From a virus, in IMG/VR virus record IMGVR_UViG_3300032296_003821, positions 30,995-94,994 of that record: a DNA stretch of 64,000 nucleotides; one strand, 5' to 3'. The position numbers were made by a program, and so were the translations under genes. The number at the start of each line of letters is the position of its first letter. Position 1 is the first letter of the stretch. Of this stretch, positions 2-50,333 are shown piece after piece. The notes below the pieces were generated by a model. The model was given only the letters and a program-made list of their open reading frames with translations, was not told the origin of the DNA and searched no databases.

Positions 2-97
2 GCAGCTGATCTAGGAGCTGAACTCCCAGGAGCAGAAGCCCCAGCAGCAGAAACCCCACCAGCTGAAACACCAGAAGAAACACCAGCAGAAGCATAA
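2..97 (+). CDS. 3' end of an upstream gene (acidic Ala/Pro/Glu-rich C-terminal tail), partial
   Basis: Frame 2 reads AADLGAELPGAEAPAAETPPAETPEETPAEA*; TAA at 95-97 overlaps the next ATG (TAATG). Confidence 0.7.
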   Translation, partial: AADLGAELPGAEAPAAETPPAETPEETPAEA

Positions 98-1095
98 TGG
101 ATATTTTAGAACAATTTATACGAAGCGTATCTTACAAATTTCCAAAAGGATACCCTGATATGAAGGATCCTAAGGATGTTGAATTTCTTAATAAACTAAT
201 AAGTGAAGTAGTTGATCCTAAAATGGTTATCAACGAACAACAAACCGAATACGATGATCGTATTAAAGAAGCTTTAGGTGTAGAACAAATTCCAATATGT
301 CAAACACCACTTGAGATAGGAAAAGATTTTAATTTAAGTGGAAAAGATGCTGAAATTTGGAAAAAATTATTTGGCGTTAAACCAATAGCAGCCAGAACAG
401 GTAAACAAACCGCTGGATCTGGTAATGGTGAAGTTTCTACATATTGGGCATTTCAATACAACAAAACTGGAAAATTCCAAGTAGAAGATAGACGAGGTGC
501 TGACAACCCAGATTTAATAATCAACAACTTAGGTGTTGAAATTAAAGACTATGGTTCCAAAATGATTACCTTAGGTAAATTTTTTGGTGATAAAAAATCA
601 TATGGTCTTTTAAGTAACTTATTTGGATTCAAAAGCTTACTTGAAGCCCTTAAAGAAAACAAATTCCCAGAAGAATCTACAGCCAACCCAGGAACATTTA
701 AATCTTCTGAATTAGTAGATGCTGCTCGTTTAATGTTAAGTTTCTATAAAGAAGCTAAACTAAAAGAATTTGCTGAAAAATATCAATTTGAAATAGTACT
801 AAACCTATTTAAACGTGTAGAAGCTATTTTAAATGAACTTCAACTTGGTTCAGGTGCATCACCAGAAGATGTAGCTGGTGGTATTTTAAAAACCATGATT
901 AAAACAAAACTTAATAAAAAACCATTAATTGGTCAAGCTAAGGGATATGTTTTAAATGTTAATGTGACTGGTTTAGGAGATTTCGTTGAAATTACAAACG
1001 AAAAAATAGATGCACTTAACAATGAAGATTTGTTAAATAATGTAGCTGTTACTTCATCTGAAATGAAAATGAATTTTGATGCTTTATTCAAATAA
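97..1095 (+). CDS. Putative internal head protein with a PD-(D/E)xK nuclease-like domain
   Basis: N-terminal YKFPKGYPD..LNKLISEV..INE segment, then GSGNGE...NPDLIINNLGVEIKD, resembling a restriction-endonuclease-fold PD..ExK active site. Confidence 0.5.
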   Translation: MDILEQFIRSVSYKFPKGYPDMKDPKDVEFLNKLISEVVDPKMVINEQQTEYDDRIKEALGVEQIPICQTPLEIGKDFNLSGKDAEIWKKLFGVKPIAARTGKQTAGSGNGEVSTYWAFQYNKTGKFQVEDRRGADNPDLIINNLGVEIKDYGSKMITLGKFFGDKKSYGLLSNLFGFKSLLEALKENKFPEESTANPGTFKSSELVDAARLMLSFYKEAKLKEFAEKYQFEIVLNLFKRVEAILNELQLGSGASPEDVAGGILKTMIKTKLNKKPLIGQAKGYVLNVNVTGLGDFVEITNEKIDALNNEDLLNNVAVTSSEMKMNFDALFK

Positions 1096-1096
1096 T

Positions 1097-1975
1097 ATGG
1101 ACAAGACTCGCCTTAAAAAACTCATCCAAGAAGTATATCACCATGTTACAGAAGAAAAATGTAGCTGTGGTTGTAACACTTGTGAAAACGTAGGTAACGC
1201 TGGCGTTATCTTAAACGAAAGTATAGCTCCAAGGGAAATATTATCGGAAAATCTGCGTTATCACGTGGAAAATAAACTCCCACTTACTGAAAATACGTTC
1301 CGATATGGTTCCAAATCGTTTCTTAATTTATGGGCAGAAGCTCGTTCATTGTATTTACGTGAAGTAATTCATGTTAACGATGATGATAAAGAAATTTTAG
1401 AGGAAACTGATCTTGGAAACTATGGAATGTATGAAGGTGTTAAAGTACCTTTAGACTTACCTATGTTAGAGGAAGGTGAAGAAGAATTAAATATAGGAGA
1501 TATCATTGAAATTAACCCTAAAGAATTTCCTAACTTTGAATTCCCATATGGCACTGAAGGTGAAATTGAAGATATAAACAAAGCAGATTACGCTAGTGAC
1601 GATTTAGTCTATACAGTTAAAATCAAATATATTGATAGTCAAGGAGATGAAGCTAATACTTTACATATTGAAAATTCATCTCAATATTTGAATGAAACTG
1701 AGAAAAAGAAAACACCACCAATTGGAAAACCAAAACGTGGTGGATCTAAAAAATTCTACGTTTACGTTAGAGATAAAGGAAAAGTTAAAAAAGTATCTTT
1801 CGGACAAGCAGGTATGTCTGCTAAAATAAATGACCCAAAAGCACGCCGTGCATTTGCTGCTCGTCATGATTGTAAAAATAAAAAAGACAGAACAAAACCA
1901 TCTTATTGGTCATGTCGCTTACCAAGATATGCTAAATTACTTGGATTAAAATCATCTTTTTCAGGATTCTGGTGA
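1097..1975 (+). CDS. Modular hypothetical protein (putative head-packaged polyprotein) with a basic C-terminal domain of a type seen in T4-like phages
   Basis: Likely start ATG 1097 (MDKTRLKKLIQEV), just after the upstream stop. CSCGCNTC motif; segments separated by ILNE/LSE/LEE/YLNE; C-terminal KPKRGGSKKFYVYV..KKVSFG..FAARHDC..YWSCR. Confidence 0.6.
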   Translation: MDKTRLKKLIQEVYHHVTEEKCSCGCNTCENVGNAGVILNESIAPREILSENLRYHVENKLPLTENTFRYGSKSFLNLWAEARSLYLREVIHVNDDDKEILEETDLGNYGMYEGVKVPLDLPMLEEGEEELNIGDIIEINPKEFPNFEFPYGTEGEIEDINKADYASDDLVYTVKIKYIDSQGDEANTLHIENSSQYLNETEKKKTPPIGKPKRGGSKKFYVYVRDKGKVKKVSFGQAGMSAKINDPKARRAFAARHDCKNKKDRTKPSYWSCRLPRYAKLLGLKSSFSGFW

Positions 1976-2382
1976 TGGATAGATTAGATAAACTTATCAA
2001 CGAAGTTCTTTCTGAAGAAAAGAAAAAACGTGACAGATGTCTTCGTATTGCAGACCGCAAATACGACAAACCATCTGCTTACAAATCTGGCGCTGTTGTA
2101 AAATGCCGCAAAGGAATGATTTGGAAAGGCTTAAAAGAAGAAGTTATTCAAGAAAAAGTAAAAGAAACCCTCCGCACTTGGTTCAAACGTAAAGGAACAC
2201 CTGGTAAAAAAGGTGGATGGGTTGATTGTAATGCACCAATCAGAAAAGATGGTAAAGTAACAGGATATAAAGCATGTGGACGTGAAGAAGGTGAAAAACG
2301 TTCAAAATATCCATCATGTCGTCCTACACCTGCTCAATGTAAAACACCTGGTAAAGGTAAAAAATGGGGAAAAACAAAATGA
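1975..2382 (+). CDS. Basic Cys-containing two-module hypothetical protein (putative internal head protein)
   Basis: ATG 1975 overlaps TGA. Leader LDKLINEVLSEE; module 1 DRC..PSAYKSGAVVKCRK; linker LKEEVIQE; module 2 LRTWFK..GGWVDC..CGR..KYPSCRP. Confidence 0.65.
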   Translation: MDRLDKLINEVLSEEKKKRDRCLRIADRKYDKPSAYKSGAVVKCRKGMIWKGLKEEVIQEKVKETLRTWFKRKGTPGKKGGWVDCNAPIRKDGKVTGYKACGREEGEKRSKYPSCRPTPAQCKTPGKGKKWGKTK

Positions 2383-2624
2383 TTAGTTTATTAGAGTTAT
2401 TGAAACAACAGGAATCACCTGAATCTCCACCTTACATGTATTCACCTGTGGGGTTTGGATGCCATGTTTGTAAATTTTATTATATGGAAGACGACAAACA
2501 TATGTGCGGCAATTCATATTACAAACATTATATGAAAACTAATGAACTTATAGATGAAGAAGGAAATCAAATTAAAGATCCTTCAAAATGGTGTTCAAAT
2601 TGGTTTTTACCAAAAGATGAATGA
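2379..2624 (+). CDS. Small 4-Cys metal-binding protein (HiPIP-like spacing)
   Basis: ATGA overlap at 2379 (MISLLELLKQ); CHVCKFY...HMC...KWCSNWF. Confidence 0.5.
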   Translation: MISLLELLKQQESPESPPYMYSPVGFGCHVCKFYYMEDDKHMCGNSYYKHYMKTNELIDEEGNQIKDPSKWCSNWFLPKDE

Positions 2625-2881
2625 GACCCTATATAGACATAGAAGTTACTGACAAATATATTATTCGCGAATTTAGCGAAAATATAGACCCAATTGAACT
2701 ATTATGGCATCGTGATGATGAAGATAGAACAGTTGAAATCCTAGAAGATACAGACTGGAAACTCCAATTAGAAGATCAGTTGCCTACCTCCCTAAAAGAA
2801 CGTATATTTATACCAAGACACGAATGGCATAGAGTCATTAAAGGAACTGGTACTTTAAAATTAAAAATACATAAATCATGA
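2621..2881 (+). CDS. Cupin-fold protein
   Basis: WHRDDEDR...IFIPRHEWHRVIKG matches cupin motifs 1 and 2. Confidence 0.65.
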   Translation: MRPYIDIEVTDKYIIREFSENIDPIELLWHRDDEDRTVEILEDTDWKLQLEDQLPTSLKERIFIPRHEWHRVIKGTGTLKLKIHKS

Positions 2882-3148: not shown

Positions 3149-3877
3149 ATGAATAAAGAAACTTTACGTATGCAAATGTTGGCTGGTATTATTACAGAGA
3201 GTCAATATAAAGAAAAAATGAATGAAAATAATGTTGGGAGTGTTGATGTTTCTCTAGTAAAAGATTTAATGAATGATCCCAATGTTAAAAAAATAACTGC
3301 TAAACTTAAAGCGGATCCTGAAGCACTTAAAAAAACCATTAAATTTGTTTCAACATATGCTAATAAAGAAGTCCCATTAAATGAAAATGATAAAATAACT
3401 AATTTAATGATGCAAAAACTAGCAGTAGATGAAATTCCATGGAAAGAATTTGTTAAAAAGGGAGATATATTATACTTAGGTGATAAACCTCTTGAATCTT
3501 ACACAACAGAAGAATTAGCTAGTTTAATTAAAGCTTCTCGAGCTGATAAAGAAGCTCAAACAGCAGCAGAAAAAGCAAGAGAAGAAAAAGCAAGAGAAGA
3601 GGCTAAAAAACAGCTTCAAATGAATAAAAAAGATAAATTATATTCTATTGCTAGTTGGTTAGGATTTCCTGCTCTTTTAGGATCAATGATGGCTGGATTT
3701 GTAGATTCTGCTGCACCCGGAGGAGTAGTGTTAGTAAGTGCTTTAACGGCGGCATTGCTTGGTTTAGGAGTTGGAGCTCTTGCTACTAAAGGATTTAAAG
3801 AAAAAGTATTACATGAAGAAGATATGAGTATTGAAGACCAAATTCAAAAAATTATTGATTTAGGAAAATCAATGTAA
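3149..3877 (+). CDS. Hypothetical protein with a scaffold-like N-terminal motif and a C-terminal hydrophobic hairpin
   Basis: LRMQMLAGII matches the scaffold C-terminus LRMQKLAGLL; two hydrophobic segments at about aa 165-212. Confidence 0.6.
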   Translation: MNKETLRMQMLAGIITESQYKEKMNENNVGSVDVSLVKDLMNDPNVKKITAKLKADPEALKKTIKFVSTYANKEVPLNENDKITNLMMQKLAVDEIPWKEFVKKGDILYLGDKPLESYTTEELASLIKASRADKEAQTAAEKAREEKAREEAKKQLQMNKKDKLYSIASWLGFPALLGSMMAGFVDSAAPGGVVLVSALTAALLGLGVGALATKGFKEKVLHEEDMSIEDQIQKIIDLGKSM

Positions 3878-5286: not shown

Positions 5287-5817
5287 ATGAGAATAGGATT
5301 TTGTGGAACAATTTCAGTTGGTAAAACAACATTAGTTAATGCATTAAGAGAATTACCTGAATTTGCTGATTATGAATTTAGAACAGAGCGTTCAAAATAC
5401 TTACGTGATTTAGGTATTCCATTAAACACTGACTCAACATTAAAAGGTCAATTTGTATTTTTGGCTGAACGTTCAAGTGAATTATATTTAGAAAATGTAA
5501 TTACTGATCGTACTGTTATTGATGTAATGGCATTTACGCGTTTAGCTGATTCAATTCCATATTATATAGGTGATACATTAAACGAAGTTGCTGCTCATTT
5601 ATTGCGCGAATATGACTATATTTTCTATGTTTCACCTGAGGGTGTTGAATTAGAAGATAATGGAGTGCGTGCTATAGATGAAAAATATCGAATGGAAATT
5701 GACCAAGAGATTTGTAAAATTATCGAGAAACATAAAACTAAAATCCCTCATTTCTCCAGATTATCAGGTACTACCGAGGAAAGAATCAAGAAATTGAAAC
5801 AAGTAATGGGTCTCTAA
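5287..5817 (+). CDS. P-loop nucleoside/nucleotide kinase-like ATPase (AAA_28 / NadR-type)
   Basis: GTISVGKTT Walker A; ITDRTVID; YDYIFY; LEDNGVR. Confidence 0.75.
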   Translation: MRIGFCGTISVGKTTLVNALRELPEFADYEFRTERSKYLRDLGIPLNTDSTLKGQFVFLAERSSELYLENVITDRTVIDVMAFTRLADSIPYYIGDTLNEVAAHLLREYDYIFYVSPEGVELEDNGVRAIDEKYRMEIDQEICKIIEKHKTKIPHFSRLSGTTEERIKKLKQVMGL

Positions 5818-5829
5818 TATTTATAAATA
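5818..5829 (+). promoter_or_regulatory. Putative late promoter (ATATTTATA motif, palindromic form)
   Basis: TATTTATAAATA, 10 nt before ATG 5840; the motif recurs before structural genes. Confidence 0.6.
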
Positions 5830-5839: not shown

Positions 5840-6685
5840 ATGAAAAAATCTCGTTTACTCGAAATCATACGTGAAGAAATTAGTGCTGTTTTACATGAAG
5901 GTGAAGCAGAAGAAAAAGCAGCAAAAGCTGCTGCTATCAAAGCTACAGATTTAGAAATTAAAGCTCTAGAAAAGAAAAAAGCTGACATGATGAAAAGCGG
6001 TGTCGCTGAATCAGAAGAACTTAATGAAATTCCAGATTTCGGTGGTCGATTTGATAAGCAAGTAGCAGCAAAATATGGTGAAGAAGATACACTAGAAGCA
6101 GCTATGGAAAAAGTTGTTAACAGAACACTTTCGGATAGAGGAATATCTAAAGCAGATGTATCTAAAATGGATAAAGAAGGTTTAAAAGGTCTTTTGAAAG
6201 CTATCCGTCAACAAATTTCTGGTAAAGGTCAAACTTCTGCTGTTGCTCAAGCTTTGAAAAAACAAACAGAATTTGATGATTCAGGAAGCAAATTACAAGA
6301 TAACCAAACAAATAATGCTATCTTAAAAGCATTAGGTTTAAAAGAACCAGGACAACGTGGTAGAAAAGCTGCTGAAAAACCTGCTGAAGCACCTAAAGCT
6401 AAAAAAGAAACAACTCCAAAAGCAGCATCTAAAGCAGAACCTGCAGATGATGAAGATGCAGCAGCAACAAAAGCAGCAGCTAGCGATTCAACAGCAAAAG
6501 AATTAGCTTCTACCCCAGAAGAAAAGAAAATTAAATTCAATCAATTCCTAGCTTCAGTTAAGAAAAATAAAGACGATAAAGCTAAAATTGATGGTATTTT
6601 AAAACTAGCAAAAGATAAATTCAAATTCGCTAAATCAATGATGGACGATTTGAAACGTGCTGCTGGTAGAGAAGTTGAAGCATGA
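5840..6685 (+). CDS. Lys/Ala/Glu-rich helical protein with N-terminal tag (putative internal head protein)
   Basis: MKKSRLLEIIREEISAVLHE leader; further VAE/LNE sites; GQRGRK motif. Confidence 0.6.
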   Translation: MKKSRLLEIIREEISAVLHEGEAEEKAAKAAAIKATDLEIKALEKKKADMMKSGVAESEELNEIPDFGGRFDKQVAAKYGEEDTLEAAMEKVVNRTLSDRGISKADVSKMDKEGLKGLLKAIRQQISGKGQTSAVAQALKKQTEFDDSGSKLQDNQTNNAILKALGLKEPGQRGRKAAEKPAEAPKAKKETTPKAASKAEPADDEDAAATKAAASDSTAKELASTPEEKKIKFNQFLASVKKNKDDKAKIDGILKLAKDKFKFAKSMMDDLKRAAGREVEA

Positions 6686-9009: not shown

Positions 9010-10908
9010 ATGGCAGATACAGGATTATTTTCACGATTAAGACGATTATTTTCAACTGATGTTATTATCCGTAATGAAGGAGATAACCAATTGAAAGTAT
9101 TTGATATAAACAAGATCCAAGTTTCAGGTGAATATGAAACCAATGCGTTGGTAGATAGATTCAATCGTATCTATACTAACTCACACACCTCAATTTATGG
9201 ATATCAAAGCTCGTTTAATTACCAAACTCTACGCCCCACACTTTATTCCGAATATGATTCAATGGATACAGATGCTATCATTGCTTCTGCCCTAGATATC
9301 TTAGCGGATGAAAGTACATTGCGTAATGACATGGGTGAGGTATTACAAATTCGCTCATCTGATGAAGATGTACAAAAAATTCTATATAATCTATTTTACG
9401 ATGTATTGAATGTAGAATTTAACTTATGGCCTTGGATTCGTAACATGTTAAAATATGGTGATTTCTTCTTGAAACTAGAAATTGCTGAAAAGTTTGGTGT
9501 GTATAATGTAATCCCTTATAATGCATTCCATATTGAAAGACAAGATGGATATGATAAAGATCATCCAAATTCAGTACGTTTTCGTTTTGATCCAGATGGT
9601 ATTTCATCCCCTTCAGACTATGGTTACTACAACGTACCAAATTCAGGTAATCAAGCAAATGCTATTTTCTTTGACAACTATGAAATGGCACACTTCCGTT
9701 TATTAACGGATACTAACTTTTTACCTTATGGTAGATCGTATTTAGAGCCTGCTCGTAAATTGTTTAAACAATATATTATGATGGAAGATGCGATGTTAAT
9801 TCACCGTATTGTTCGCGCACCTGAAAAACGTATCTTCTACATCAATGTTGGAAACATTGCACCTGCTGAGGTAGAAAACTTCATGCAGAAAACAATTTCC
9901 AAAATGAAACGTACTCCTTATATTGACCAAAACACTGGTGATTATAACTTGAAGTACAATATGCAGAATCTACTTGAAGACTTCTATATCCCAGTACGTG
10001 GTAATGATCAAGCAACTAAAATTGATAATTTAGCAGGTTTACAATGGCAAGGTATTGAAGACGTTACCTACTTACGTGATAAATTATTTGCTGCCCTTAA
10101 GGTGCCTAAAGCATTTATGGGTTACGAAAAAGATTTGACTGGTAAAGCTACATTAGCTGCTGAAGATATTCGATTTGCACGTACAATTGAGCGTATTCAA
10201 CGTATTGTAGTATCTGAGTTGACTAAAATTGCTCTTGTTCACTTATATGCTCAAGGTTATCGTGACGAAAGCATGACAAACTTTGAATTGTCATTAACTA
10301 CACCTTCAATCATTTACGATCAAGAAAGAGTAGCATTAATGAAAGAAAAAGTTGATCTAGCTACTCAAATGATGGAAAATAAAATCCTTCCTACTGATTG
10401 GATTTATGAAAACTTATTCCATTTAAGTGAAGATCAATATGATGAATATAGAGATTTGCTTTTACAAGATGCTAAACGTAAATTCCGTATTGCACAAATT
10501 GAAAACGAAGGTAACGACCCACTTGAAACTGGAAAATCTTATGGTACACCACACGATCTAGCTTCTTTATATGGTAGAGGCAGATATGAAGCAACTAATG
10601 TACCTTTAGGGTATGATGAGGAAAAAGATTTAGGTCGCCCTGAGGAAAAAATTACAGATAAAAATACACAAGATAATGCGTTTGGAAAAGACAGACTTGG
10701 AACAGACGGCGTTAAAAAAGACGGAGACGAATCAGATTCAATTAGACCTCAATACAAAGGTGGCAGTCCATTAGCTCTTGAAACTAAAGGTAAACCAAAC
10801 CCTAACAAGAGAATGTTTAACGATATCAAAAATCAACACAAACAAATGATCTTTGAATCAGACATTAGGGGGAATTCACTATTAGATGAATCACAGATAC
10901 GAGAGTAA
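9010..10908 (+). CDS. Portal protein (T4 gp20-like)
   Basis: MEDAMLIHRIVRAPEKRIFYINVGN; LEDFYIPVRG; LFAALKVPKAF; EDIRFARTIERIQ. Confidence 0.95.
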   Translation: MADTGLFSRLRRLFSTDVIIRNEGDNQLKVFDINKIQVSGEYETNALVDRFNRIYTNSHTSIYGYQSSFNYQTLRPTLYSEYDSMDTDAIIASALDILADESTLRNDMGEVLQIRSSDEDVQKILYNLFYDVLNVEFNLWPWIRNMLKYGDFFLKLEIAEKFGVYNVIPYNAFHIERQDGYDKDHPNSVRFRFDPDGISSPSDYGYYNVPNSGNQANAIFFDNYEMAHFRLLTDTNFLPYGRSYLEPARKLFKQYIMMEDAMLIHRIVRAPEKRIFYINVGNIAPAEVENFMQKTISKMKRTPYIDQNTGDYNLKYNMQNLLEDFYIPVRGNDQATKIDNLAGLQWQGIEDVTYLRDKLFAALKVPKAFMGYEKDLTGKATLAAEDIRFARTIERIQRIVVSELTKIALVHLYAQGYRDESMTNFELSLTTPSIIYDQERVALMKEKVDLATQMMENKILPTDWIYENLFHLSEDQYDEYRDLLLQDAKRKFRIAQIENEGNDPLETGKSYGTPHDLASLYGRGRYEATNVPLGYDEEKDLGRPEEKITDKNTQDNAFGKDRLGTDGVKKDGDESDSIRPQYKGGSPLALETKGKPNPNKRMFNDIKNQHKQMIFESDIRGNSLLDESQIRE

Positions 10909-10920
10909 GGAAATTCTATA

Positions 10921-10948: not shown

Positions 10949-11812
10949 ATGCAAGTTAAACATTCAAAGTATAAAAACACGGGTATCCTCTTTGAACTTT
11001 TGGTTCGCCAGATCACCACAGACACACTGGATGGAAAGGATTCTCCGGCTAAAGATATACTTAAAAAATATTTCGTTAAGTCGGAATTGGGTCGTGAGTA
11101 TAAGTTATATGAAACGTTACTTAAAAGAACATCATTAACTGAAGGTAAAGCAAACGTTGTAGTAGATACATTAATCGAATCTTCTAAAACATTAAATAGA
11201 GGAGCTATTAAACGTCAGAAATACAATCTGATCAGCGAGATCCAAAAATATTATGATTTAAACGAGTTTTTTAATCATAAGCTACCAAACTATAAAATGT
11301 TTGCTGCATTCTATACGTTGACTGAAATTGCAAACGCCCAACACACTGTTGACCCTGATCAAGCTATCAACAATAAAGTAACTATTTTAGAGCATTTAAC
11401 TGCTGCTAAAATTGAAGAAAATAAAGTACGTGATGAGGTAATGGGTGAATTTGAAAAAGCCGATAAAGACGTTCGTTTTTTAGCATATAAAATGGTATTA
11501 GAAAGCTTTAATACAAAATATAACGACCTACATCCACGTCAAAAAGAAATTCTTAAAGAATTTATTACTTCGGTTGACAATAAACCACGTTTAAAAGAAT
11601 TTTACACTGCCAAGGTAGTTGAAATTAAAGAAGAATTAGCTAAACTCAATGCTAAAACTAAAAACGAAGTAACCAAAATTAAAATCAACGAAATCATCAA
11701 CATTATCCAGATACCTGCTAAAACAGCTAAAATTACTGATAATGATTTAGTTGACTTGTTACAGTATTATGATTTAATCAACGAGTTAGAAACTGTAAAT
11801 GGAAAAAATTAA
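10949..11812 (+). CDS. Head-assembly/prohead core hypothetical protein
   Basis: KHSKYKNTGILFELLVRQI N-terminus; helical; lies between portal and protease. Confidence 0.6.
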   Translation: MQVKHSKYKNTGILFELLVRQITTDTLDGKDSPAKDILKKYFVKSELGREYKLYETLLKRTSLTEGKANVVVDTLIESSKTLNRGAIKRQKYNLISEIQKYYDLNEFFNHKLPNYKMFAAFYTLTEIANAQHTVDPDQAINNKVTILEHLTAAKIEENKVRDEVMGEFEKADKDVRFLAYKMVLESFNTKYNDLHPRQKEILKEFITSVDNKPRLKEFYTAKVVEIKEELAKLNAKTKNEVTKIKINEIINIIQIPAKTAKITDNDLVDLLQYYDLINELETVNGKN

Positions 11813-12302
11813 AGAAATAATTCGCAAGAAACTAGCAGAAATGAGCGCTACCGGAATGGGTGGTGCTTCGTTTTCTCCTGGTCAAGGAATGAATTATGCT
11901 ACTCCAAAAGCATTTAAAAAAACAAAAAATATTAAAGAAGGTCCTGGAGCTAGTTTAGGAATGGGTCCAAGTGCTGGTTCCGAAGGTGTAAAAGATAATG
12001 CTTACGTAAAACAATTCAAATATAAACTAGTACCTAAGAAAATTAAAGGATCTGGTTTAGAAGTTAAGCAACTTTGGGAAGATGAAACATTAAACGAAAT
12101 GAATGACGTTCAAAAAAGACGCATTGCTTCGTTAGACGAGATTGAAAAATTAATGAACGAAATTCAACCACTTGTTTCAAACGCAAAAAATGAGACAATT
12201 GAATTATATGGTGGAAATGCTGGTTCATATGATATCAATAAACCAATCGAAATAGTTTTAAGCTATTTAAAAGAAATAAAACAACTCTTATCAGAAAAAT
12301 AA
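11799..12302 (+). CDS. Putative prohead core/internal protein
   Basis: IKEIIRKKLAE leader; EMSATG..YATPKAF; IKE, LWE and LNE sites. Confidence 0.55.
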   Translation: MEKIKEIIRKKLAEMSATGMGGASFSPGQGMNYATPKAFKKTKNIKEGPGASLGMGPSAGSEGVKDNAYVKQFKYKLVPKKIKGSGLEVKQLWEDETLNEMNDVQKRRIASLDEIEKLMNEIQPLVSNAKNETIELYGGNAGSYDINKPIEIVLSYLKEIKQLLSEK

Positions 12303-14149
12303 TGAAAAAGACATTACAAGATCAGTATTTGTTAATCAAAGAAGGTAAAGGACACGTTGGTGTTTTCCTTACAGAAGCAAAGCGTCAATTCCCAAATATC
12401 GTACGCAATGCTGCTACATTTGATGAAGCAGTAGCATCACTTAAGACCAAAAACATCATCTCAGAAAATGTAATTTCTGTAATGCCTGCTATGATGGATC
12501 GTCCTAAAAAAGAATCTTATGAAACTGCGTTTGAAGCATTCTTAGCTGAAGCAAAAAAGAAAAACGAAGACGAAAAAGTTAAAGCAGAAGAAAAAAAAGT
12601 TTCTAAACCTGTAGAAGAAGATCTTGCCCATAACTACGATAATTCAGATGATAAGAATCCTGACAATATGATCTTTGGTCAAATTATGATGGGTTATTAT
12701 GCTGAAATGAAAGATCCTAAAAATGCTAATAAGACGATGCAAGAACTTAAAGACATCGTATTTAAAAACTTAGAAAAAGACCCAATTTACTATACAAAAA
12801 ATGGTCAATTTGGTGTTAAAGATTTAGGATATGTAACTGAAGCACCTGGTTTGGGTGAGCCAAAAGAAGCTAAAGGTAAATACAAATCATCTGGATACGG
12901 TGACTTAAAAGAAGGTGTAGAAAAATTTAAGTCGGATGTTAAAGATGCTGTAACTAAAAAAAAAGATAGCAAATTTACTGATGAAGAAATTAAAGCTAAA
13001 CTAAAACAAAAACGTGAAGCTGAACTTAAGCGTAGAAAAGAAGCAGGTGAATCACTTGAAGAAATTGCATTGCGTGAAGTAGTTCAAAATATGATTTTTG
13101 AAGAATTGAATTCTGAAGAATTTGAAGATACTCTTTTTAGACTTGAACAACCACATTTAAGTGATAAAGAAGCTTTAACCACAATTCAAAAAATATATGC
13201 TCGTCACAGTCAAGGACTTAATTCAATTTCTCAAAATATAGAAGAAAGTGATGTTGATGAAGCATATCAATTGGTAAACATTAATCCTGTAAAAAGCGAT
13301 AAAGAAAGGGGTGAAAGAGAACCACAACCTTTCAAAATGTCTTATATTGATCCTTCAGTAGTAGATTCACTTACTAAAAACCAACACTTAAGAATCCTTA
13401 GAAGCCCATCTGACCCAGAAAACATTACACTCGCTATTCGTGCTAGATTGGTCCCAACATCTGCTAAAAATTTAGGAAAAACTACAGATAATTTAAATAA
13501 ACTTCCATTAGATATTCCATCAGATTTTAAAAACTTTTTAACTGATACAAACAATATTTCTGGAGAAAAACAACTTCCAACAAGAGAAGGTGTTGCTGAA
13601 TTGTATAAAGTACTTAGCAATGCTACTTTAAATAAAAATGGTAGTCTTGTATTGAAGGTTCCAAACCCAAATTACGAAAAATCACCTGAATCTTTAAAAG
13701 AAAGTGTTGAAAAGGATTTAGCAGATATCAACAAAGAAGCAGAACACGAAGTTCTACAAGCTAAATTAGACAAAATTGACGCTCTAATCGACCATAGACG
13801 TTCTAAACTTTCAAAACTTGACGAGGATGAGGATATGAAAGCCTTAACTGACAAGAAAAAAGTTAAAGAACTTGAAAAAGACATTAAAAAACTAGAGGTA
13901 GCTCGTAAAAAAGTTGAAAAAATGATGTCGAAATTTAAAGGTAAAAAAGCAGCCTCTAAAGAAGTAATTGACGAAATGGAAGATGAACCATCAACTGAAT
14001 ATCTAGAATATAAAGAAGATGCTGAAAATCGTTACGACGCTGGAGAAAGCATCGATTCAATCCTTGGCAACTATAACAATATCTCTCAAGATATGAAAGA
14101 TATGTTACGTAATGATCTAGAAGGTAAAATGGACGGAATGGATTATTAA
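12302..14149 (+). CDS. Large charged multi-module prohead core/internal protein
   Basis: Lys/Glu-rich modules separated by many [LIV]-x-E sites (IKE, LTE, ISE, LAE, LKE, LRE, IEE, VDE, LKE, IDE); immediately upstream of the protease. Confidence 0.55.
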   Translation: MKKTLQDQYLLIKEGKGHVGVFLTEAKRQFPNIVRNAATFDEAVASLKTKNIISENVISVMPAMMDRPKKESYETAFEAFLAEAKKKNEDEKVKAEEKKVSKPVEEDLAHNYDNSDDKNPDNMIFGQIMMGYYAEMKDPKNANKTMQELKDIVFKNLEKDPIYYTKNGQFGVKDLGYVTEAPGLGEPKEAKGKYKSSGYGDLKEGVEKFKSDVKDAVTKKKDSKFTDEEIKAKLKQKREAELKRRKEAGESLEEIALREVVQNMIFEELNSEEFEDTLFRLEQPHLSDKEALTTIQKIYARHSQGLNSISQNIEESDVDEAYQLVNINPVKSDKERGEREPQPFKMSYIDPSVVDSLTKNQHLRILRSPSDPENITLAIRARLVPTSAKNLGKTTDNLNKLPLDIPSDFKNFLTDTNNISGEKQLPTREGVAELYKVLSNATLNKNGSLVLKVPNPNYEKSPESLKESVEKDLADINKEAEHEVLQAKLDKIDALIDHRRSKLSKLDEDEDMKALTDKKKVKELEKDIKKLEVARKKVEKMMSKFKGKKAASKEVIDEMEDEPSTEYLEYKEDAENRYDAGESIDSILGNYNNISQDMKDMLRNDLEGKMDGMDY

Positions 14150-14150: not shown

Positions 14151-14783
14151 ATGAGCAAACAACTTTTAATAGAAACCAGACATTTTGATCCAAAACCAAT
14201 GAAATTGGTTGAGGGTATGAGCAAAAGCGGTAACGTTTTTGTTGAAGGGATATTGGCTACTGTAGAGGTAAAAAATGGAAATGGTCGCTATTACAAACGT
14301 GAATTGTGGGAACGCGAAATTGATAACTTTACACGCAAAATCCAAATGAAATCTACCGAAACGGTAGGTGAGTTGGATCATCCTGATTCGCAAGTAATCA
14401 ACCTTAAAAACGCATCTCATGCTATACGTGAAGTATGGTGGAGAGGGGATGAAATTTGGGGTAAAGTAGAAATATTCTCTGATATGGGTGATTTAGGCAC
14501 TACATCAGGTCGTATTGCAGGTGCATTAGTCAAAAATGGCTTAATCATTGGTATTTCTTCTCGTGGAATGGGTTCCCTAAAACAAATGGGTGAGGTAATG
14601 GAAGTACAAGACGACTTTGAATTACTTACTTGGGATTTAGTTTCCAACCCATCTAACCCAGATTCATGGATGAAAAATGGTGCTTTAAATGAATCAAGAT
14701 CAACATATTTGCATGATTACGCACGTACAAATTCAATAGTTACTGAAATATTATGTGCTAAAGGTACATGTCCGATATTTTAA
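14151..14783 (+). CDS. Prohead maturation protease (T4 gp21-like)
   Basis: KNGNGRYY; GELDHPDS; NLKNASH; GISSRGMGS; WDLVSNPS. Confidence 0.95.
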   Translation: MSKQLLIETRHFDPKPMKLVEGMSKSGNVFVEGILATVEVKNGNGRYYKRELWEREIDNFTRKIQMKSTETVGELDHPDSQVINLKNASHAIREVWWRGDEIWGKVEIFSDMGDLGTTSGRIAGALVKNGLIIGISSRGMGSLKQMGEVMEVQDDFELLTWDLVSNPSNPDSWMKNGALNESRSTYLHDYARTNSIVTEILCAKGTCPIF

Positions 14784-16298: not shown

Positions 16299-17996
16299 AT
16301 GTCAAACATTAATTCTCTTTTAGAAAGCGCAGCTGGCAGTTGGAAAAACATGCAAAGCGACGCAGCTCGTATGGCCGCAAAATGGGGCAAAACGGGTCTT
16401 TTGGAAGGATTGAGCACAGAAGTTGAGAAAAACAACATGGCTTTGATCCTCGAAAACCAAGCAAAACAACTTGTTGTTGAGCAATCTTCTACAAACGTAG
16501 GTGGTGCTACCTTTACAGTAGGTCAAGGTGAGCAGTGGGCTGGTGTAGCTCTTCCATTGGTACGTAAAGTATTCGGTTCTTTATCATCTAAAGAATTCGT
16601 TTCTGTACAACCAATGAATTTGCCTTCTGGTCTAGTATTCTTCTTAGATTTCCAATATGGTGATGCTAACGGTAAAATTGCTCCTACTGGTCCATTTGGT
16701 CCTGGTGGTGATACTTACGGTGCTACTTCATCTATGTATGGTAACACAAACCCAGCTAATGGTGGTGACCCAACTAACGGTTTATATGGTGCAGGTCGTT
16801 TTGCATACTCAATCAACCAATTCTCAGCTTCAGCAGTTACTACATGTACTACAGCTTCTTGGTCTGATGTTGAATATAATTCTGACTTATCATCTTCTAT
16901 CGCTGCTGGTTACTGGACTAAAGTTGCAGTTCCTGTAACTTCATTATCTGGTTCAGACCTTAAAGGTGTTCGTGCATTCGTAGTAGCTTCAGGTTCAGTA
17001 GTAACTCCAACTCAACAAGCTAAATACCTTCCACAGTATACTTACACTGATGGTACTAATGTATACTTTATTGCAACTGGTTCAGTTAACACTGCTAACC
17101 TTCCATTGAATGGTGGTACTAACACAGTATTCTACAACCTTCAACCAGCTGACAACTACCGTGGTGATTTTGAAGATCAATCATCTGCAAATCGTGGTGG
17201 TTATCCAAATGCTAATTCTACATCTGCAGATCAATTAGCTATTCCACAAATCAACATCCAAATGAAATCTGAGGCTATTGTTGCTAAAACTCGCAAGTTG
17301 AAAGCACAATGGACACCAGAATTCGCTCAAGATTTGAACGCATACCAATCTTTGGATGCTGAAGCTGAATTGACTTCAATCATGAGCGAGTACATTGCAT
17401 TGGAAATCGATCTTGAAGTATTGGATATGTTGATCCAAGACGCATCTGCAGCAGATGAGTACTGGTCAACTAAAAACAACAACTACTTGAATGCTGATAA
17501 AACAGCTTGGGAAAACAACGCTGGTTACTACAACACTCAAGGTCAGTGGTTCCAAACTTTAGGTACTAAAATGCAGAAAGTTTCTAACAAAATTCACCAA
17601 AAAACTCTACGTGGTGGTGCAAACTTCATCGTATGTGCTCCAAGTGTAGCAACTATCCTCGAGTCAATCCCAGGATTTGCTTCATCTTCTGATGGTGATG
17701 TAACTAAAGCTAGCTACGCATTCGGTATCCAGAAAGCTGGTCAAATGAACAACCGTTATACAGTTTACAAAAACCCTTACATGACTGAAAATGTAATGTT
17801 GATGGGTTATAGAGGATCACAATTCCTTGAAACTGGTGCGGTATTTGCTCCGTATGTTCCATTAATCATGACACCTCTTGTGTACGATCCAGATACATTT
17901 ACTCCACGTAAAGGACTCTTGACTCGTTACGCTAAGAAAATGATCCGTCCTGAATTCTTCGGTCGTATCTATGTTAACGATTTGAACGTACTTTAA
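16299..17996 (+). CDS. Major capsid protein (T4 gp23-like)
   Basis: KWGKTGLLEGL; LENQAKQL; SVQPMNLPSGLVFFLDF; AKTRKLKAQWTPEFAQDLNAY; APYVPL; FTPRKGLLTRYA. Confidence 0.97.
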   Translation: MSNINSLLESAAGSWKNMQSDAARMAAKWGKTGLLEGLSTEVEKNNMALILENQAKQLVVEQSSTNVGGATFTVGQGEQWAGVALPLVRKVFGSLSSKEFVSVQPMNLPSGLVFFLDFQYGDANGKIAPTGPFGPGGDTYGATSSMYGNTNPANGGDPTNGLYGAGRFAYSINQFSASAVTTCTTASWSDVEYNSDLSSSIAAGYWTKVAVPVTSLSGSDLKGVRAFVVASGSVVTPTQQAKYLPQYTYTDGTNVYFIATGSVNTANLPLNGGTNTVFYNLQPADNYRGDFEDQSSANRGGYPNANSTSADQLAIPQINIQMKSEAIVAKTRKLKAQWTPEFAQDLNAYQSLDAEAELTSIMSEYIALEIDLEVLDMLIQDASAADEYWSTKNNNYLNADKTAWENNAGYYNTQGQWFQTLGTKMQKVSNKIHQKTLRGGANFIVCAPSVATILESIPGFASSSDGDVTKASYAFGIQKAGQMNNRYTVYKNPYMTENVMLMGYRGSQFLETGAVFAPYVPLIMTPLVYDPDTFTPRKGLLTRYAKKMIRPEFFGRIYVNDLNVL

Positions 17997-18781: not shown

Positions 18782-18784
18782 CCA

Positions 18785-41090: not shown

Positions 41091-41100
41091 AACAAAAAAT

Positions 41101-44042: not shown

Positions 44043-44733
44043 TACATTATCTAAAACAGGTATCCAAATTAATAATGTCATACAACCATGGCATGTTACT
44101 CAATCTATAGATGCTTTTACAGGAGTATCAGCTTATGATATTACTTTATCTGGTTCATTAGATATAATTGGCCCTTTAAATTTAGATTCTCCTGTAACAG
44201 GAAACTTAATTACAAGTGCTTCTTATGCTGTTACGTCTTCATTTGCTTTAACTGCTGTTTCTGCAAGTAATGTAAATTATGCTTTGACATCATCTGATAG
44301 TACTTTTTTACAATTGCATCATGGATTATTTCAAAATCCTGCTCAAAATACAATATATTATTTTGCCCTTGAACCATTATCTGGATCAGGAATTACATTA
44401 ACAACCGACTCAGGTAAAGTAGGAACATATTTTCCTAAAACAGGGATTACTTTTAATAAATGTTCTATCACTACAACAGTACAAGGAACAGCTGGATCAT
44501 CAGAAGCATCAGCTTATACTTTAGTTATAGGAGGATCAAGTGTATCTTTACCTAGTTTAACTCATAATCAACCTGTTTCTTCTAGCACCAATATCATTTC
44601 AGATATTTCTTTAAGTACTCTTGATTCAAGAATTTATGTTGTTTGGAGAACTCCCACAACATGGGCAACTGCACCAACTAATGTTTCTCATAACATAGTT
44701 TTATATGGAACTCGAGGAACAGCAAATATATAA
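44035..44733 (+). CDS. Virion structural protein, paralog 3 of 3
   Basis: LSKTGI..IQPWHVTQSIDAFTG..YDITLSGS; PTNVSH. Confidence 0.6.
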   Translation: MANTLSKTGIQINNVIQPWHVTQSIDAFTGVSAYDITLSGSLDIIGPLNLDSPVTGNLITSASYAVTSSFALTAVSASNVNYALTSSDSTFLQLHHGLFQNPAQNTIYYFALEPLSGSGITLTTDSGKVGTYFPKTGITFNKCSITTTVQGTAGSSEASAYTLVIGGSSVSLPSLTHNQPVSSSTNIISDISLSTLDSRIYVVWRTPTTWATAPTNVSHNIVLYGTRGTANI

Positions 44734-44741
44734 TATTTATA
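44734..44741 (+). promoter_or_regulatory. Putative late promoter
   Basis: ATATTTATAA upstream of ATG 44759. Confidence 0.55.
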
Positions 44742-44758
44742 AACAAAACCCTTAAATT

Positions 44759-47223: not shown

Positions 47224-49347
47224 ATGGCAAATTTCACAGTTTCCCCTGGAGTAGCAATTAGCGAAATAGACAACACATTTTTGGCTGGATTACCAATCCC
47301 TCCTGGAGCCGCAATTATCGGCCCAACAGTAAAAGGACCAGTTGAAGTACCAACATTGGTTACTTCATATTCTGATTTTACAACATTATTTGGAGATACT
47401 TTTATTAGTGGTGGTAATTCATACTCTTATCTAACTTCACAAGCTGCTTTTAATTATTTTAATTATGGTGGAACAGCATTATGGGTAGCAAGAGTTGCTA
47501 GTGGATCTTTTACTCCCGCAACTAGTACTACTATTTCGAATAATGTAATAGCTGTTACAGGAGCTTTTTCATCAGCATCATTTAATGCTTCTTCATTTTT
47601 TACAGGATCTGCTACAGGATCTTGGTCAGGAATGAGGATTGAAATTCCTGGGGTGAATGACTATTATGTAGTTCCGAATAATAGTTCATATAACTATTTT
47701 AATAATTTAATAGACACATATTATTCTTCTAGTGGTGCTGCGACTAACAACAATACTGATAATTATATGGCTGTTGTAGTTTCTACTATTAATAACCCAA
47801 CAGCAGAACTTAAAACAATAGGCCTAACAGCTTCATACGACTCAGGAACTGATATCTTTACCCTTTCCGCTATCAACTCAGGAGTTTCTTTAAATGGTGT
47901 AAATATTTACAAAGATGCATATGCTGGAGGTGTTGGTACTTTAGTAGCTACTTTAGCAGGTGGTACTACTAATATAACTTCAAATTCATTTACTCTTGAA
48001 ACCCTTTCTGAAGGTATTATTATGAATAATTCAGGTTCGGAAGTTGCGGGAGCTCTAGTTTCAGGAAGTATAGCTAATATAAGATTTGAAATTACCAACC
48101 CAAATACTGGTTCAGGTACTTTTAACTTAATAATTCGTCGCGGAGATGATACAACTACTAATAAAATAGTATTAGAAACATGGAATAATTTAACATTAGA
48201 TCCAAATTCACCTAGATTTATTTCTAAAGTAATCGGTAATCAATTGCTTTCTTACAATTCTGTTACTAACCAAATGGACGTAACTGGTGATTATCCAAAC
48301 CAATCACGTTATGTTCGTGTAAAAGCCGTTAATTCATTAACTCCAAATTACTTAAACTCAAATGGTTTCCCTCAATCACAATACACTGGCTCAATCCCAG
48401 CTGCTCAAAGTGGTTCATTTACTGGTGCTATAGGTACTGTAAATCCTGTTATCAATTTGAATGAAAATATTACTCAAACAAATACTCAAGGATTAGCAGC
48501 AAGTGATTATAATAATATGATCGCACTTTTAAGTAACGCCGATTTCTACCAATACAACGTAATATTCACCCCAGGACTAATAGCTTCATATCATGCATCT
48601 CAAGTTAATAGCTTAATTGCTAATTCACAGAACAGAGGTGATTGTTTGTATATTCCTGATATGGTTGAATATTCAAGTAATGTTGCTAGTGCAGTAAGTA
48701 CAGCCCAATCATTTGACAACTCATATGCAGCAACATATTGGCCTTGGGTTCGTTTAGCAGATTCAGCTACTGGAAAATTAGTTTGGGCACCGGCTTCAAC
48801 AGTAATTCCGGGTGTATATGCATTTAACGATAGAGTATCTGCTCCATGGTTTGCACCAGCAGGTATTAATCGAGGTGGTTTAGGTACTGTATCATATGCA
48901 CAATATAAATTAACTCAAGCAGAAAGAGATACATTATATGCAAATAACATTAACCCAATTGCAACATTACCTAAACAAGGTGTGGTAGTATTTGGACAAA
49001 AAACATTACAAAAATCCCAATCAGCTCTTGATCGTGTAAATGTACGTCGTTTGATGATTGAATTAAAAGGATATATTCGTCAAATTGCTGATACGATTGT
49101 ATTTGAACAAAATACTATTACAACAAGAAATGTATTCCTTTCTAAAGTTACTCCATACTTAGAAAATATTCAACAAAAACAAGGATTATACGCATTTAAA
49201 GTTGTAATGGATGAATCTAACAACGGACCAGCAGTAATTGACCAAAATCAATTAATCGGCCAGATTTATATTCAACCAACACGCACAGCTGAATTTATTT
49301 CCCTAGATTTCATCTTACTACCAACAGGAGCTGAATTTCCGGGATAA
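47224..49347 (+). CDS. Tail sheath protein, copy 2
   Basis: SPGVAISEID; YAATYWPWV; PWFAPAGINRG; DRVNVRRLMI; IQPTRTAEFI. Confidence 0.95.
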   Translation: MANFTVSPGVAISEIDNTFLAGLPIPPGAAIIGPTVKGPVEVPTLVTSYSDFTTLFGDTFISGGNSYSYLTSQAAFNYFNYGGTALWVARVASGSFTPATSTTISNNVIAVTGAFSSASFNASSFFTGSATGSWSGMRIEIPGVNDYYVVPNNSSYNYFNNLIDTYYSSSGAATNNNTDNYMAVVVSTINNPTAELKTIGLTASYDSGTDIFTLSAINSGVSLNGVNIYKDAYAGGVGTLVATLAGGTTNITSNSFTLETLSEGIIMNNSGSEVAGALVSGSIANIRFEITNPNTGSGTFNLIIRRGDDTTTNKIVLETWNNLTLDPNSPRFISKVIGNQLLSYNSVTNQMDVTGDYPNQSRYVRVKAVNSLTPNYLNSNGFPQSQYTGSIPAAQSGSFTGAIGTVNPVINLNENITQTNTQGLAASDYNNMIALLSNADFYQYNVIFTPGLIASYHASQVNSLIANSQNRGDCLYIPDMVEYSSNVASAVSTAQSFDNSYAATYWPWVRLADSATGKLVWAPASTVIPGVYAFNDRVSAPWFAPAGINRGGLGTVSYAQYKLTQAERDTLYANNINPIATLPKQGVVVFGQKTLQKSQSALDRVNVRRLMIELKGYIRQIADTIVFEQNTITTRNVFLSKVTPYLENIQQKQGLYAFKVVMDESNNGPAVIDQNQLIGQIYIQPTRTAEFISLDFILLPTGAEFPG

Positions 49348-49393: not shown

Positions 49394-49882
49394 ATGGCAA
49401 TTTTAAATCCAAACGAAATCTTTTATACAGCGTTTGAACCTAAACAAACAAACCGATTTATCCTTTATATGGATGGTGTTCCATCATATTTGGTAAAAGG
49501 AGTAGGAGCAGTGTCTTTAACACAAACAGCAGTTGCCCTTAATCACATCAACGTTCAACGTTATGTAAAAGGAAAAACTGTTTGGAACACTATTCAATTT
49601 ACCCTCTATGATTCAATTACACCTTCTGGTGCACAAGCAGTAATGGAATGGGTACGTTTAGGCCACGAATCAGTAACTGGCCGTGATGGTTATTCAGATT
49701 TCTATAAAAAAGATATTACGTTTAACGTATTAGGACCTGTAGGTGATATTGTTTCTGAATGGATTGTTAAAGGAGCCGTTATTACAGAAGCTAACTTTGG
49801 TGATTACAACTGGGATGATGATGGAACCCCAGTAAATGTTACAGTAACTGTACAACCTGACTACTGTATCTTGAACTATTAA
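49394..49882 (+). CDS. Tail tube protein (T4 gp19-like)
   Basis: FEPKQTNRF; W.TIQFTLYD; AQAVMEW; YKKDI...LGPVGD.V.EW..KGA; follows the sheaths. Confidence 0.9.
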   Translation: MAILNPNEIFYTAFEPKQTNRFILYMDGVPSYLVKGVGAVSLTQTAVALNHINVQRYVKGKTVWNTIQFTLYDSITPSGAQAVMEWVRLGHESVTGRDGYSDFYKKDITFNVLGPVGDIVSEWIVKGAVITEANFGDYNWDDDGTPVNVTVTVQPDYCILNY

Positions 49883-49907
49883 TATTAGGTTAAACAATAA
49901 ACATGTA

Positions 49908-49940
49908 AGAGCTCCAAAGAAATTTGGAGCTTTTATTTTC
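49908..49940 (+). terminator. Rho-independent terminator
   Basis: AGCTCCAAA-GAAA-TTTGGAGCT followed by TTTATTTTC. Confidence 0.85.
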
Positions 49941-49948
49941 TTTCAATA

Positions 49949-49956
49949 TATTTATA
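49949..49956 (+). promoter_or_regulatory. Putative late promoter (near-leaderless)
   Basis: ATATTTATA ends 5 nt before ATG 49962. Confidence 0.55.
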
Positions 49957-49961
49957 ACCAT

Positions 49962-50333
49962 ATGAAACTAGATAGCTTACGTACTTTAGTTAAAGAGGAG
50001 CTTAGCAAGCGACTAAATGAGGAATACCAAGACAAGTTCAAAATGGTAGGTATGCTTATTACTAATATTAAAAAACGCCCTCAAAAAGAAATTTTCTCAG
50101 ATATTCGTTCCATTCCAGGTGTTACAGTAGCATCTGTAAAAGAACCAATGGAATATAGTGAGCAAGATACAGAAAAATTTCAATCTATAATGACCGTTAA
50201 AGTAGATGGTCATCCATGGATTGCATCTAGTGGATTCGACCGTTCAAAAATGGAAGACATTCGCAAAGCTATATTAAAAGTAGAAGGAGTATTATCATAT
50301 AATGTAAATCCTGATAATATTTCTGCTCTTTAA
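49962..50333 (+). CDS. Tagged small protein (putative internal head protein)
   Basis: MKLDSLRTLVKEELSKRLNEE tag; DIRSIPGVTVAS..; ILKVEGV. Confidence 0.55.
   Translation: MKLDSLRTLVKEELSKRLNEEYQDKFKMVGMLITNIKKRPQKEIFSDIRSIPGVTVASVKEPMEYSEQDTEKFQSIMTVKVDGHPWIASSGFDRSKMEDIRKAILKVEGVLSYNVNPDNISAL

Follow-up and report, generated by a model that had tools for sequence, protein, structure and literature searches.

Short N-terminal tags ending in candidate protease sites on unrelated proteins of a T4-related phage of Flavobacteria

Introduction

In phage T4, the internal proteins IPI, IPII and IPIII and the protein Alt carry a capsid-targeting sequence (CTS) that is removed by gp21 (Mullaney & Black 1996; PMC9026906, PMC3012670). 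The propeptides of the T4 internal proteins, which are 10-19 residues long, target the core, and relatives of T4 encode divergent internal proteins with CTS-like leaders (PMC9026906, PMC3012670). Cleavage by gp21 takes place after L/I-x-E (PMC9026906). Here we describe short N-terminal tags, probably of a similar kind, that are shared by otherwise unrelated proteins encoded in a 64,000-nucleotide stretch of viral DNA (positions 30,995 to 94,994 of IMG/VR record IMGVR_UViG_3300032296_003821; hereafter, the window). The window is the last 64 kb of one viral contig of 94,994 bp.

Propeptides are also found in the giant phages phiKZ, 201phi2-1 and SPN3US, where those of inner-body or ejection proteins are cut by the gp21-like proteases gp175/gp245 (PMC5694885, PMC10052503, PMC9026906). 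In phage P1, an N-terminal packaging signal of at most 30 residues on DarB suffices to send the protein, or a reporter, into the capsid (PMC9024508). A literature search found no publication describing tags such as those reported below for Far-T4 or Bacteroidota phages.

The source of the window is a T4-related ('Far-T4'/Immutovirus-like) myophage of aquatic Flavobacteria. Its closest cultured relative is Flavobacterium phage vB_FspM_immuto (hereafter, immuto; 57% protein identity in the major capsid protein, MCP), followed by Microcystis phage Mel-JY01 and Rhodothermus phage RM378, and these nearest cultured relatives place it in the 'Far-T4' neighbourhood as defined in PMC4360716. The G+C content is ~34%, and the + strand holds nearly all of the window's genes. 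The original prediction, made from the letters of the window, held that unrelated proteins of this phage share an N-terminal address tag ending in a protease site, that the same [LIV]-x-E sites form a code running through its head proteins, and that the tagged proteins are cargo loaded into the prohead.

Results

A portable leader at the N-termini of unrelated proteins

Five open reading frames (ORFs) of the window, named here by their start positions (1097, 1975, 2878, 5840 and 49962; Table 1), and a contig gene outside the window (9855-10190) begin with a shared leader that we call type A. Its consensus is M-K-x-x-x-L6-x-x-[LI]9-[IV]10-[KR]-E12-[EV]-[LI]14-x-x-x-[LIV]18-x-E20, a 20-residue amphipathic helix that contains two hydrophobic-x-Glu motifs: [IV]10-x-E12, which lies inside the core and is present in every copy, and a second motif ending at E20. 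The N-termini quoted in the original prediction were found in the sequence as given, and BLASTP comparison of the bodies of the window's tagged proteins with one another shows no similarity.

We gauged how often such a leader would arise by chance with a regular expression (regex) for its core, [LIVM]..[LI][IVL].E[EVA][LIVY], which was derived from the original prediction's own examples. Among 98 contig proteins (30,515 amino acids), this pattern matched eight times, and six of the matches begin at residue 4-6; shuffling within proteins gave an expectation of 0.69 matches overall and 0.036 at the N-terminus. Across 80 related loci collected via the terminase (786 proteins, 217,114 residues) there were 49 matches, 38 of them at residues 4-7, and all four matches in the complete immuto genome were N-terminal. 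The leader scan that had been proposed as a check was run with a hidden Markov model (HMM) built without Met columns: 46 of 46 matches of ≥10 bits were N-terminal, and reversed sequences gave none. The seeds of this model match by construction, so the informative part of the result is the absence of internal matches.

A comparison free of any pattern gave the same picture. When residues 2-23 of all proteins were compared all-against-all without gaps, 12 pairs scored ≥30, whereas random internal 22-mers gave a mean of 1.7 such pairs and a maximum of 6. After true paralogues (fibres, sheath), the top pairs were leaders: 2878/49962 at 47 and 9855/2878 at 45. The first of these pairs had been described as sharing a near-identical leader on unrelated bodies, a description that is slightly generous in its first part (15 of 21 residues identical, or 71%) and correct in its second. 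Because only 40 of the 63 nucleotides (63%) are identical, the pair does not reflect a recent DNA duplication.

The leader extends well beyond this contig. In a library of 1.84 billion proteins, the leader profile matched 305 cluster representatives at E≤0.001; among the best 150 library matches, the core lay inside the first 10 residues in 127 of the 144 newly listed, and at least 73 unrelated body clusters stand behind a type A leader. Relatives carry 4-10 type A genes each. In a 156-kb relative (96% complete) the profile picks out ten, five of which are adjacent, small, and all start M-K-H-S-Q-L-K-x-L-I-K-E-E-I; such clusters of tagged genes resemble the T-even ip loci, which are also clustered. 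Taken together, regex, HMM, pattern-free test and BLASTP bear out the proposal that the leader is a portable, N-terminus-specific module on unrelated proteins.

Six library proteins (P0241, P0251, P0288, P0292, P0296 and P0335) hold 2-4 full tag copies each, internal M-K included, at a spacing of ~80-230 residues. Either these are genuine polyproteins built of tag-body units, or gene calls have been fused.

The leader ends at a conserved hydrophobic-x-Glu boundary

The end of the leader is most sharply defined in the ORF 5840 family, in which 25 orthologues have a mean pairwise identity of 0.77 over residues 1-20 and 0.11 over residues 21-60. At the boundary itself, P3 (position 18) is L or I in all 25 and P1 (position 20) is E in 24, with P2 (position 19) free (N, R, G, H and others). 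In this family, the alignment thus supports the predicted hydrophobic-x-Glu end, and the combination of hydrophobic P3, free P2 and Glu at P1 is, as a residue pattern, that of T4 gp21 specificity. Across the 16 clusters of unrelated bodies found locally, the first site beyond the core is at offset +14 in seven, at +10 in three and at +13 in one. Among the 73 library body clusters, 65 have [LIV]-x-E exactly +14 from the core start, a figure that is partly circular in that the profile rewards those columns.

Each conserved leader residue is written with 2-4 synonymous codons across the 25 orthologues, and this variation indicates selection on the peptide rather than on the DNA. It also speaks to an alternative that we regard as highly improbable, namely that the shared start is conserved as nucleic acid (as a region for translation initiation or late regulation, or as a homology arm in cassette exchange) and not as a functional peptide. 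Late-promoter-like boxes do stand just upstream of several tagged genes, and tandem arrays of tagged genes would favour recombination. However, the 2878 and 49962 leaders agree more in residues than in nucleotides (71% versus 63%), and cassette exchange would in any case be compatible with a targeting function, as has been proposed for the T-even ip loci.

Sites of this pattern are also conserved in two head proteins, at points that correspond to those at which T4 processes its own. Those at residues 9, 36, 52 and 61 of the MCP are kept in 18 of 18 orthologues with P2 free; conservation of the MCP propeptide ends after L-V-[VT]-E61, and mature T4 gp23* begins at a point that aligns with residues ~54-62. 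In the prohead protease, three sites flank the catalytic core: an [LI]-x-E at ~21 (25 of 26 orthologues; P2 is V, L, I, S, N, T or A), one at ~181 (26 of 26) and one at ~199 (25 of 26), with immuto as the exception at both ~21 and ~199. A depletion of [LIV]-x-E in the mature MCP, considered as protease avoidance, was rejected as not robust: the mature MCP of the window has one such motif in 504 residues, relatives have 1-6 in the mature part, and composition predicts only 4-6 for the whole MCP.

The leader is gained and lost as a unit

Two of the window's tagged bodies have counterparts that start without the leader. In ORF 1097, the leader is followed by a C-x-C-G-C-x-x-C cluster and then by a conserved V-I-L-N-E41, and the C-terminus matches phrog_7595/DUF5754. 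Six distant relatives of this body start at M-C-x-C-G-C, with a stop at most five codons upstream and no leader, and three others bear a different N-terminal helix; from the leaderless orthologues it follows that the leader is optional on the 1097 body. In ORF 1975, a Cys-rich, basic DUF5872 body (isoelectric point, pI, 10.2) follows the leader, and the same body occurs without it in gp70 of the 52-kb Roseobacter phage CRP-902. That protein starts at a basic K-K-K-P-K-R-D-x-C, which corresponds to the point right after L-S-E14 in the window protein. Judged by these orthologues, one and the same body can gain or lose the tag, which is therefore modular.

These features help in weighing the possibility, which we consider improbable, that the leader is an ordinary amphipathic or coiled-coil helix (for oligomerisation, or as a folding nucleus) that has spread among small phage proteins, serving neither as a targeting signal nor as a substrate of the protease. 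The leader is indeed K/E/L/I-rich and predicted to be helical, such helices are common in AT-rich phage proteomes, and some library proteins contain internal repeats of it. An ordinary helix would, however, leave unexplained that the leader is almost never internal in this clade, that its register to Met1 is fixed, that the P3/P1 pattern with its free P2 recurs at a fixed +14, and that conservation stops exactly at Glu20 while the leader comes and goes as a unit on the same bodies.

The bodies themselves are diverse. Those of ORF 2878 and contig gene 9855 are small and acidic, and that of ORF 5840 is Lys/Ala/Glu-rich, of low complexity and basic (pI 9.1-9.4), with a second site, L-N-E63, before a conserved I-P-D-F-G-G. 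A tblastn search of cultured phages with ORF 5840 gave no match, and a Pfam search with ten tagged bodies from relatives returned DUF5661 and sub-threshold matches only. For ORF 49962, an AlphaFold2 model (36-sequence alignment; mean predicted local distance difference test score, pLDDT, 74) shows residues 3-21 as a helix and residues 16-23, which include L-N-E20, as a low-confidence linker, with a compact beta-alpha-beta-beta-alpha-beta domain after them. The modelled body may be a ferredoxin/ACT-like domain, a generic match. We also considered this protein as a tail terminator and rejected the idea: its PHROG (E 0.007) and Pfam (E 0.023) matches are below threshold, and AlphaFold2 with Foldseek gave only the generic ferredoxin/ACT-like matches. 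An ESM Atlas search with ORF 49962 returned unnamed viral clusters only.

Two of these families have further features next to the leader. In the ORF 1097 family, the C-x-C-G-C-x-x-C cluster and the V-[IV]-L-N-E that follows it (window 1160-1219) stand at or near the N-terminus whether or not a leader is present, and the Cys cluster may be a metal-binding propeptide in its own right. ORF 5840 and five of its orthologues have an acidic, Ala-rich segment of ~43 residues between L-H-E20 and L-N-E63 (window 5900-6028), and in the other orthologues the leader's A-L-N-E directly joins I-P-D-F-G-G; the segment looks like an inserted spacer between two protease-type sites.

Two further tag classes, one of which copies the tail of the scaffold

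Two more tag classes, both missed by the original prediction, appear to follow the same grammar as the leader: a tag, then [LIV]-x-E. The type B tag was found in the N-terminal residues of ORF 3149, whose product also has a hydrophobic hairpin close to its C-terminus. The tag reads ...L-R-M-Q-M-L-A-G-I-I-T-E17-S, a copy of the C-terminal peptide of the scaffold followed by I-T-E. The underlying motif, R-[MF]-[QRK]-[KQ]-L-A-G-[IL], stands at the extreme C-terminus of 17 scaffolds (the window's and those of 16 relatives). Outside scaffolds it is confined to the N-termini of four proteins, ORF 3149 included, where it continues I-I-T-E-S, and internal copies number zero. Through this copy of the scaffold tail, head assembly is directly linked to at least one of the tag classes.

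The type C tag, a class new here, is M-x-N-F-D-L-K-K-[FY]-L-x-E-[NG]-K-L. It is carried by 22 proteins of 68-436 amino acids, always at residue 4-5, and 21 of the 22 have a later [LIV]-x-E at +13/14 or +19-24. One copy lies in the contig at 28997-29587, ~1.4-2.0 kb before the start of the window. Immuto, in which all three tag classes occur, has four type C genes (1803, 103806, 117631 and 118632), and the 156-kb relative has five (locus L085, G001:95000-104000), interleaved with five type A genes in the cluster described above. With all classes counted together, there are ~8-9 tagged genes in the incomplete contig and 13-16 in complete relatives.

It is tempting to extend the scaffold likeness to type A. 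The scaffold has internal islands D-L-x-E-L-L-R-E-[IL]-E-E at residues 109 and 204, and a loose regex for a scaffold-like helix is nearly limited to leaders, scaffolds and the ORF 12302 family. We keep the idea that the leader mimics the internal D-L-x-E-L-L-R-E-I-E-E helix, or the N-terminus of the scaffold, only as speculation.

A T4-type head module, and other candidate tags

Pfam identifies a T4-type head module in the window: large terminase, gp20 portal, Peptidase_S77 prohead protease and gp23 MCP (Table 1). The protease scores 95.6 bits against a gathering cut-off of 27 and aligns with the T4 gp21 structure 5jbl (E 3e-19), in which alignment its E-L-D-H-P (His) and G-I-S-S-R-G-x-G-S (Ser) blocks match the T4 chain. 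A set of T4-type head genes (gp21-family protease, gp20 portal, gp23 MCP and an acidic scaffold) is thus supported by the sequence evidence.

Several further proteins of the window had been linked to the tag. ORF 11799 occupies the genome position of T4 gp67/gp68. As a leader bearer it is only a loose fit; in its favour, seven orthologues retain [LI]-x-E followed by M-S-[AT]-T-G, and the immuto orthologue fits type A better. The helix inside ORF 12302 is conserved, its orthologues keeping L-R-K-V-I-R-E-M-I-x-x-E-L, and its role is uncertain. The internal motif of ORF 97 was overstated and is doubtful, being a single regex match that is otherwise unsupported. The terminase N-terminus, which had been raised as a caveat on account of its resemblance to the tag, aligns to T4 gp17 residues ~106-130, is without L-x-E at +14 and is part of the terminase fold. 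The resemblance is therefore not a tag, and the caveat is resolved.

Table 1. Positions in the window of tagged proteins, head genes and late-promoter-like boxes (aa, amino acids; nt, nucleotides)
Feature	Position	Strand	Details
Type A protein, 292 aa	1097..1975	+	Leader residues 1-19, nt 1097-1153, ending V-T-E19
Type A protein, 135 aa	1975..2382	+	Leader residues 1-14, nt 1975-2016, ending L-S-E14
Type A protein, 89 aa	2878..3147	+	Leader residues 1-20, nt 2878-2937, ending L-N-E20
Type B protein, 242 aa	3149..3877	+	N-terminus L-R-M-Q-x-L-A-G-I-I-T-E17, nt 3149-3199
ATATTTATAAA box	5817..5827	+	12 nt before ATG of ORF 5840
Type A protein, 281 aa	5840..6685	+	Leader residues 1-20, nt 5840-5899, ending L-H-E20
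Large terminase	7399-9000		Pfam
Portal protein, T4 gp20 family	9010..10908	+	PF07230, 226 bits, E 7e-67
Small protein between portal and protease	11799..12302	+	Leader residues 1-14 ending L-A-E14, before M-S-A-T-G; loose fit
Internal leader-like helix A-L-R-E-V-V-Q-N-M-I-F-E-E-L	13067..13108	+	In ORF 12302-14149, 615-aa head-module protein
Prohead protease, Peptidase_S77 / T4 gp21 family	14151..14783	+	PF03420, E 3.5e-27
Acidic scaffold protein, 432 aa	14972..16270	+	Head module
Scaffold extreme C-terminus A-F-L-R-M-Q-K-L-A-G-L-L	16232-16267		
MCP, gp23 family	16299..17996	+	PF07068, 254 bits, E 5e-75
MCP propeptide, residues 1-61	16299-16481		Sites L-L-E9, L-L-E36, I-L-E52, V-V-E61
Type A protein, 123 aa	49962..50333	+	Leader residues 1-20, nt 49962-50021, ending L-N-E20
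ATATTTATAAA boxes of the window	5817-5827, 10920-10930, 18784-18794, 19293-19303, 41082-41092, 44733-44743		

Late-promoter-like boxes and neighbouring genes

The ATATTTATAAA box occurs in eight copies in the contig, all 3-18 nucleotides upstream of structural-module gene starts. It precedes the tagged genes 5840 and contig 9855, and a copy with one mismatch precedes ORF 49962. The box includes the T4 late core TATAAATA and looks like a late promoter; with such a very short spacing from box to ATG, the mRNAs would have almost no 5' leader. The N-terminal region of one contig protein looks, by eye, like the T4 late sigma factor gp55.

Upstream of ORF 49962, two adjacent paralogous sheath-like genes of ~700 amino acids with similar N-termini occupy 45069-47177 and 47224-49347, and relative G001 has a single 564-amino-acid sheath-like gene at that place. 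Downstream, at 50375-51410, lies a hub-like gene (weak PF12322) followed by an overlapping 112-amino-acid ORF with a TTG start; these could be a frameshifted or coupled pair ahead of an 869-amino-acid tape-measure-like gene.

Discussion

At the level of sequence comparison, the tags exist as N-terminal, modular elements that are conserved as peptides and end in a conserved P3/P1 pattern. We think it likely, with appreciable room for doubt, that they are prohead-loading propeptides like the T4 CTS that are clipped off by the protease. Our account of how tagged proteins would bind the core or capsid, be cleaved and packaged, and finally be ejected is modelled on T4, where each step is established for its own propeptides of 10-19 residues. 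In the first step of this proposal, the leader helix would give a protein an affinity for the scaffolding core during assembly of the prohead, and the scaffold-tail copy of type B would instead confer affinity for the inner surface of the capsid. The protein would then be enclosed as the gp23-type shell closes. Finally, the gp21-type protease would cut after the Glu of [LIV]-x-E, at E20 and perhaps at E12, and the mature body freed inside the head could leave with the DNA.

A number of observations weigh against this proposal. Homology of the leader to the T4 CTS is not demonstrable, the likeness seen by eye being limited to the M-K start and a hydrophobic-I-x-E. Leader and scaffold helices are alike at the regex level only, and the leader HMM scores scaffolds at ~0-3 bits. 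Five of the 16 local body clusters have no second [LIV]-x-E near the leader, and the internal tag copies of some library proteins suggest that a free N-terminus may not be required. Our literature search for this clade, immuto included, found no virion proteomics, N-terminal mapping, cleavage or packaging data. Bare [LIV]-x-E is also common everywhere (469 occurrences genome-wide versus 376 expected from composition, or ~1.25-fold), so that finding it in the portal or scaffold says little by itself. The generic [LIV]-x-E code of the original prediction was therefore overstated, and of the head-protein sites that it had listed, those of the MCP propeptide and the protease stand by virtue of their conservation.

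Gene location counts against the proposal as well. ORF 49962 has the tail tube gene on one side and a hub-like gene on the other, and its conservation is high: of 929 homologues, the best 120 are all 85-97% identical and nearly all 123 amino acids long. Contig gene 9855 lies directly before a gp25-like baseplate gene, as does its immuto orthologue. A tail or assembly role could also fit these two genes, which may not be arms-race cargo, so that the original prediction's 'cargo' is overstated for them; ORF 49962 is conserved rather than variable.

The same two genes also support a different explanation: the leader could be a helix for assembly or docking in general, with no specificity for the head (serving tail or baseplate assembly, or a phage chaperone), and be cleaved or not. 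This explanation would perhaps account for only part of the set, such as 49962 and contig 9855. In line with it, the tagged cluster of the 156-kb relative adjoins clamp-loader and GroEL-like genes, and the clade encodes GroEL/GroES. We nevertheless judge this explanation unlikely. It gives no role to the [LIV]-x-E20 boundary or to the sharp drop in conservation there, and the type B tag copies the tail of the scaffold. The fold of the 49962 body is generic, and its tail-terminator matches fall below threshold. Location outside the head module is likewise a feature of T4, whose ip and alt genes are scattered beyond it.

If loading into the prohead is what the tags do, sequence alone would suffice to list candidate proteins that are packaged in the virion, and possibly injected, for widespread uncultured T4-like phages of fresh and marine waters, and most of the tagged proteins are 'dark matter' without a Pfam family. 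The copy of the scaffold tail suggests a testable binding partner for the tag, a point that is unclear even for the T4 CTS. A self-removing tag of 20 residues could also be used to package proteins in Bacteroidota phages, as the T4 CTS has been in E. coli. A wider claim would be that the head-packaged proteins of this abundant aquatic phage clade can be read from sequence through three interchangeable clip-off tags, with scaffold mimicry as the loading route. By this claim 5-7% of genes would be marked (conserved, membrane-type and basic, DNA-binding-like ones among them), with type A alone on at least 73 families. Such a system would far exceed the handful of T4 internal proteins in size, and its mechanism would be more transparent. 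We put this forward tentatively, as a possibility that we would not, on balance, expect to hold in full.

How, then, does the system compare with those already described? As with the T4 CTS, a short N-terminal peptide with a hydrophobic-x-Glu end is found on unrelated proteins of one genome; a protease of the gp21 family is encoded together with a scaffolding core, a gp20 portal and a gp23 MCP; and the bodies are variable, some being basic, and some of the genes are clustered. Unlike the CTS, the tag has 20 residues rather than 10, forms a clear amphipathic helix and offers two candidate Glu sites (E12 and E20). Each genome has ~8-16 tagged genes divided among three tag classes, some conserved genes of the tail or baseplate modules among them, and the system is known from sequence alone.

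The giant phages likewise have many head-internal proteins with N-terminal propeptides that are cut after Glu by a T4-like protease, and redundant sites are common among them. Their proteases, however, prefer S/A/G at P3, whereas P3 here is L/I/V, as in T4, at leader, MCP and protease sites, and the small P3 residue of the phiKZ type does not occur at them. Giant-phage propeptides are also long and do not form one shared short tag, whereas here a single short tag is shared. P1 DarB resembles the present proteins in having an N-terminal packaging signal, but the Dar proteins have no common consensus and no T4-type scaffold and protease logic, and a single client is known.

The C-terminal helix-turn-helix of the P22 scaffold and the cargo-loading peptides of encapsulins are short terminal peptides through which a protein attaches to the inside of an HK97-fold shell. 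Type B is akin to these in copying the scaffold's own terminal peptide. It differs from them in that the client bears the copy N-terminally, with a protease site after it; by analogy, the copy might bind the MCP. The principle is thus an old one, known for T4 since the 1990s and extended by reviews that suggest CTS-like leaders in T4 relatives. What sets the present case apart is a longer, helical tag with two sites, the presence in one genome of three tag classes that include a copy of the scaffold tail, and many more clients.

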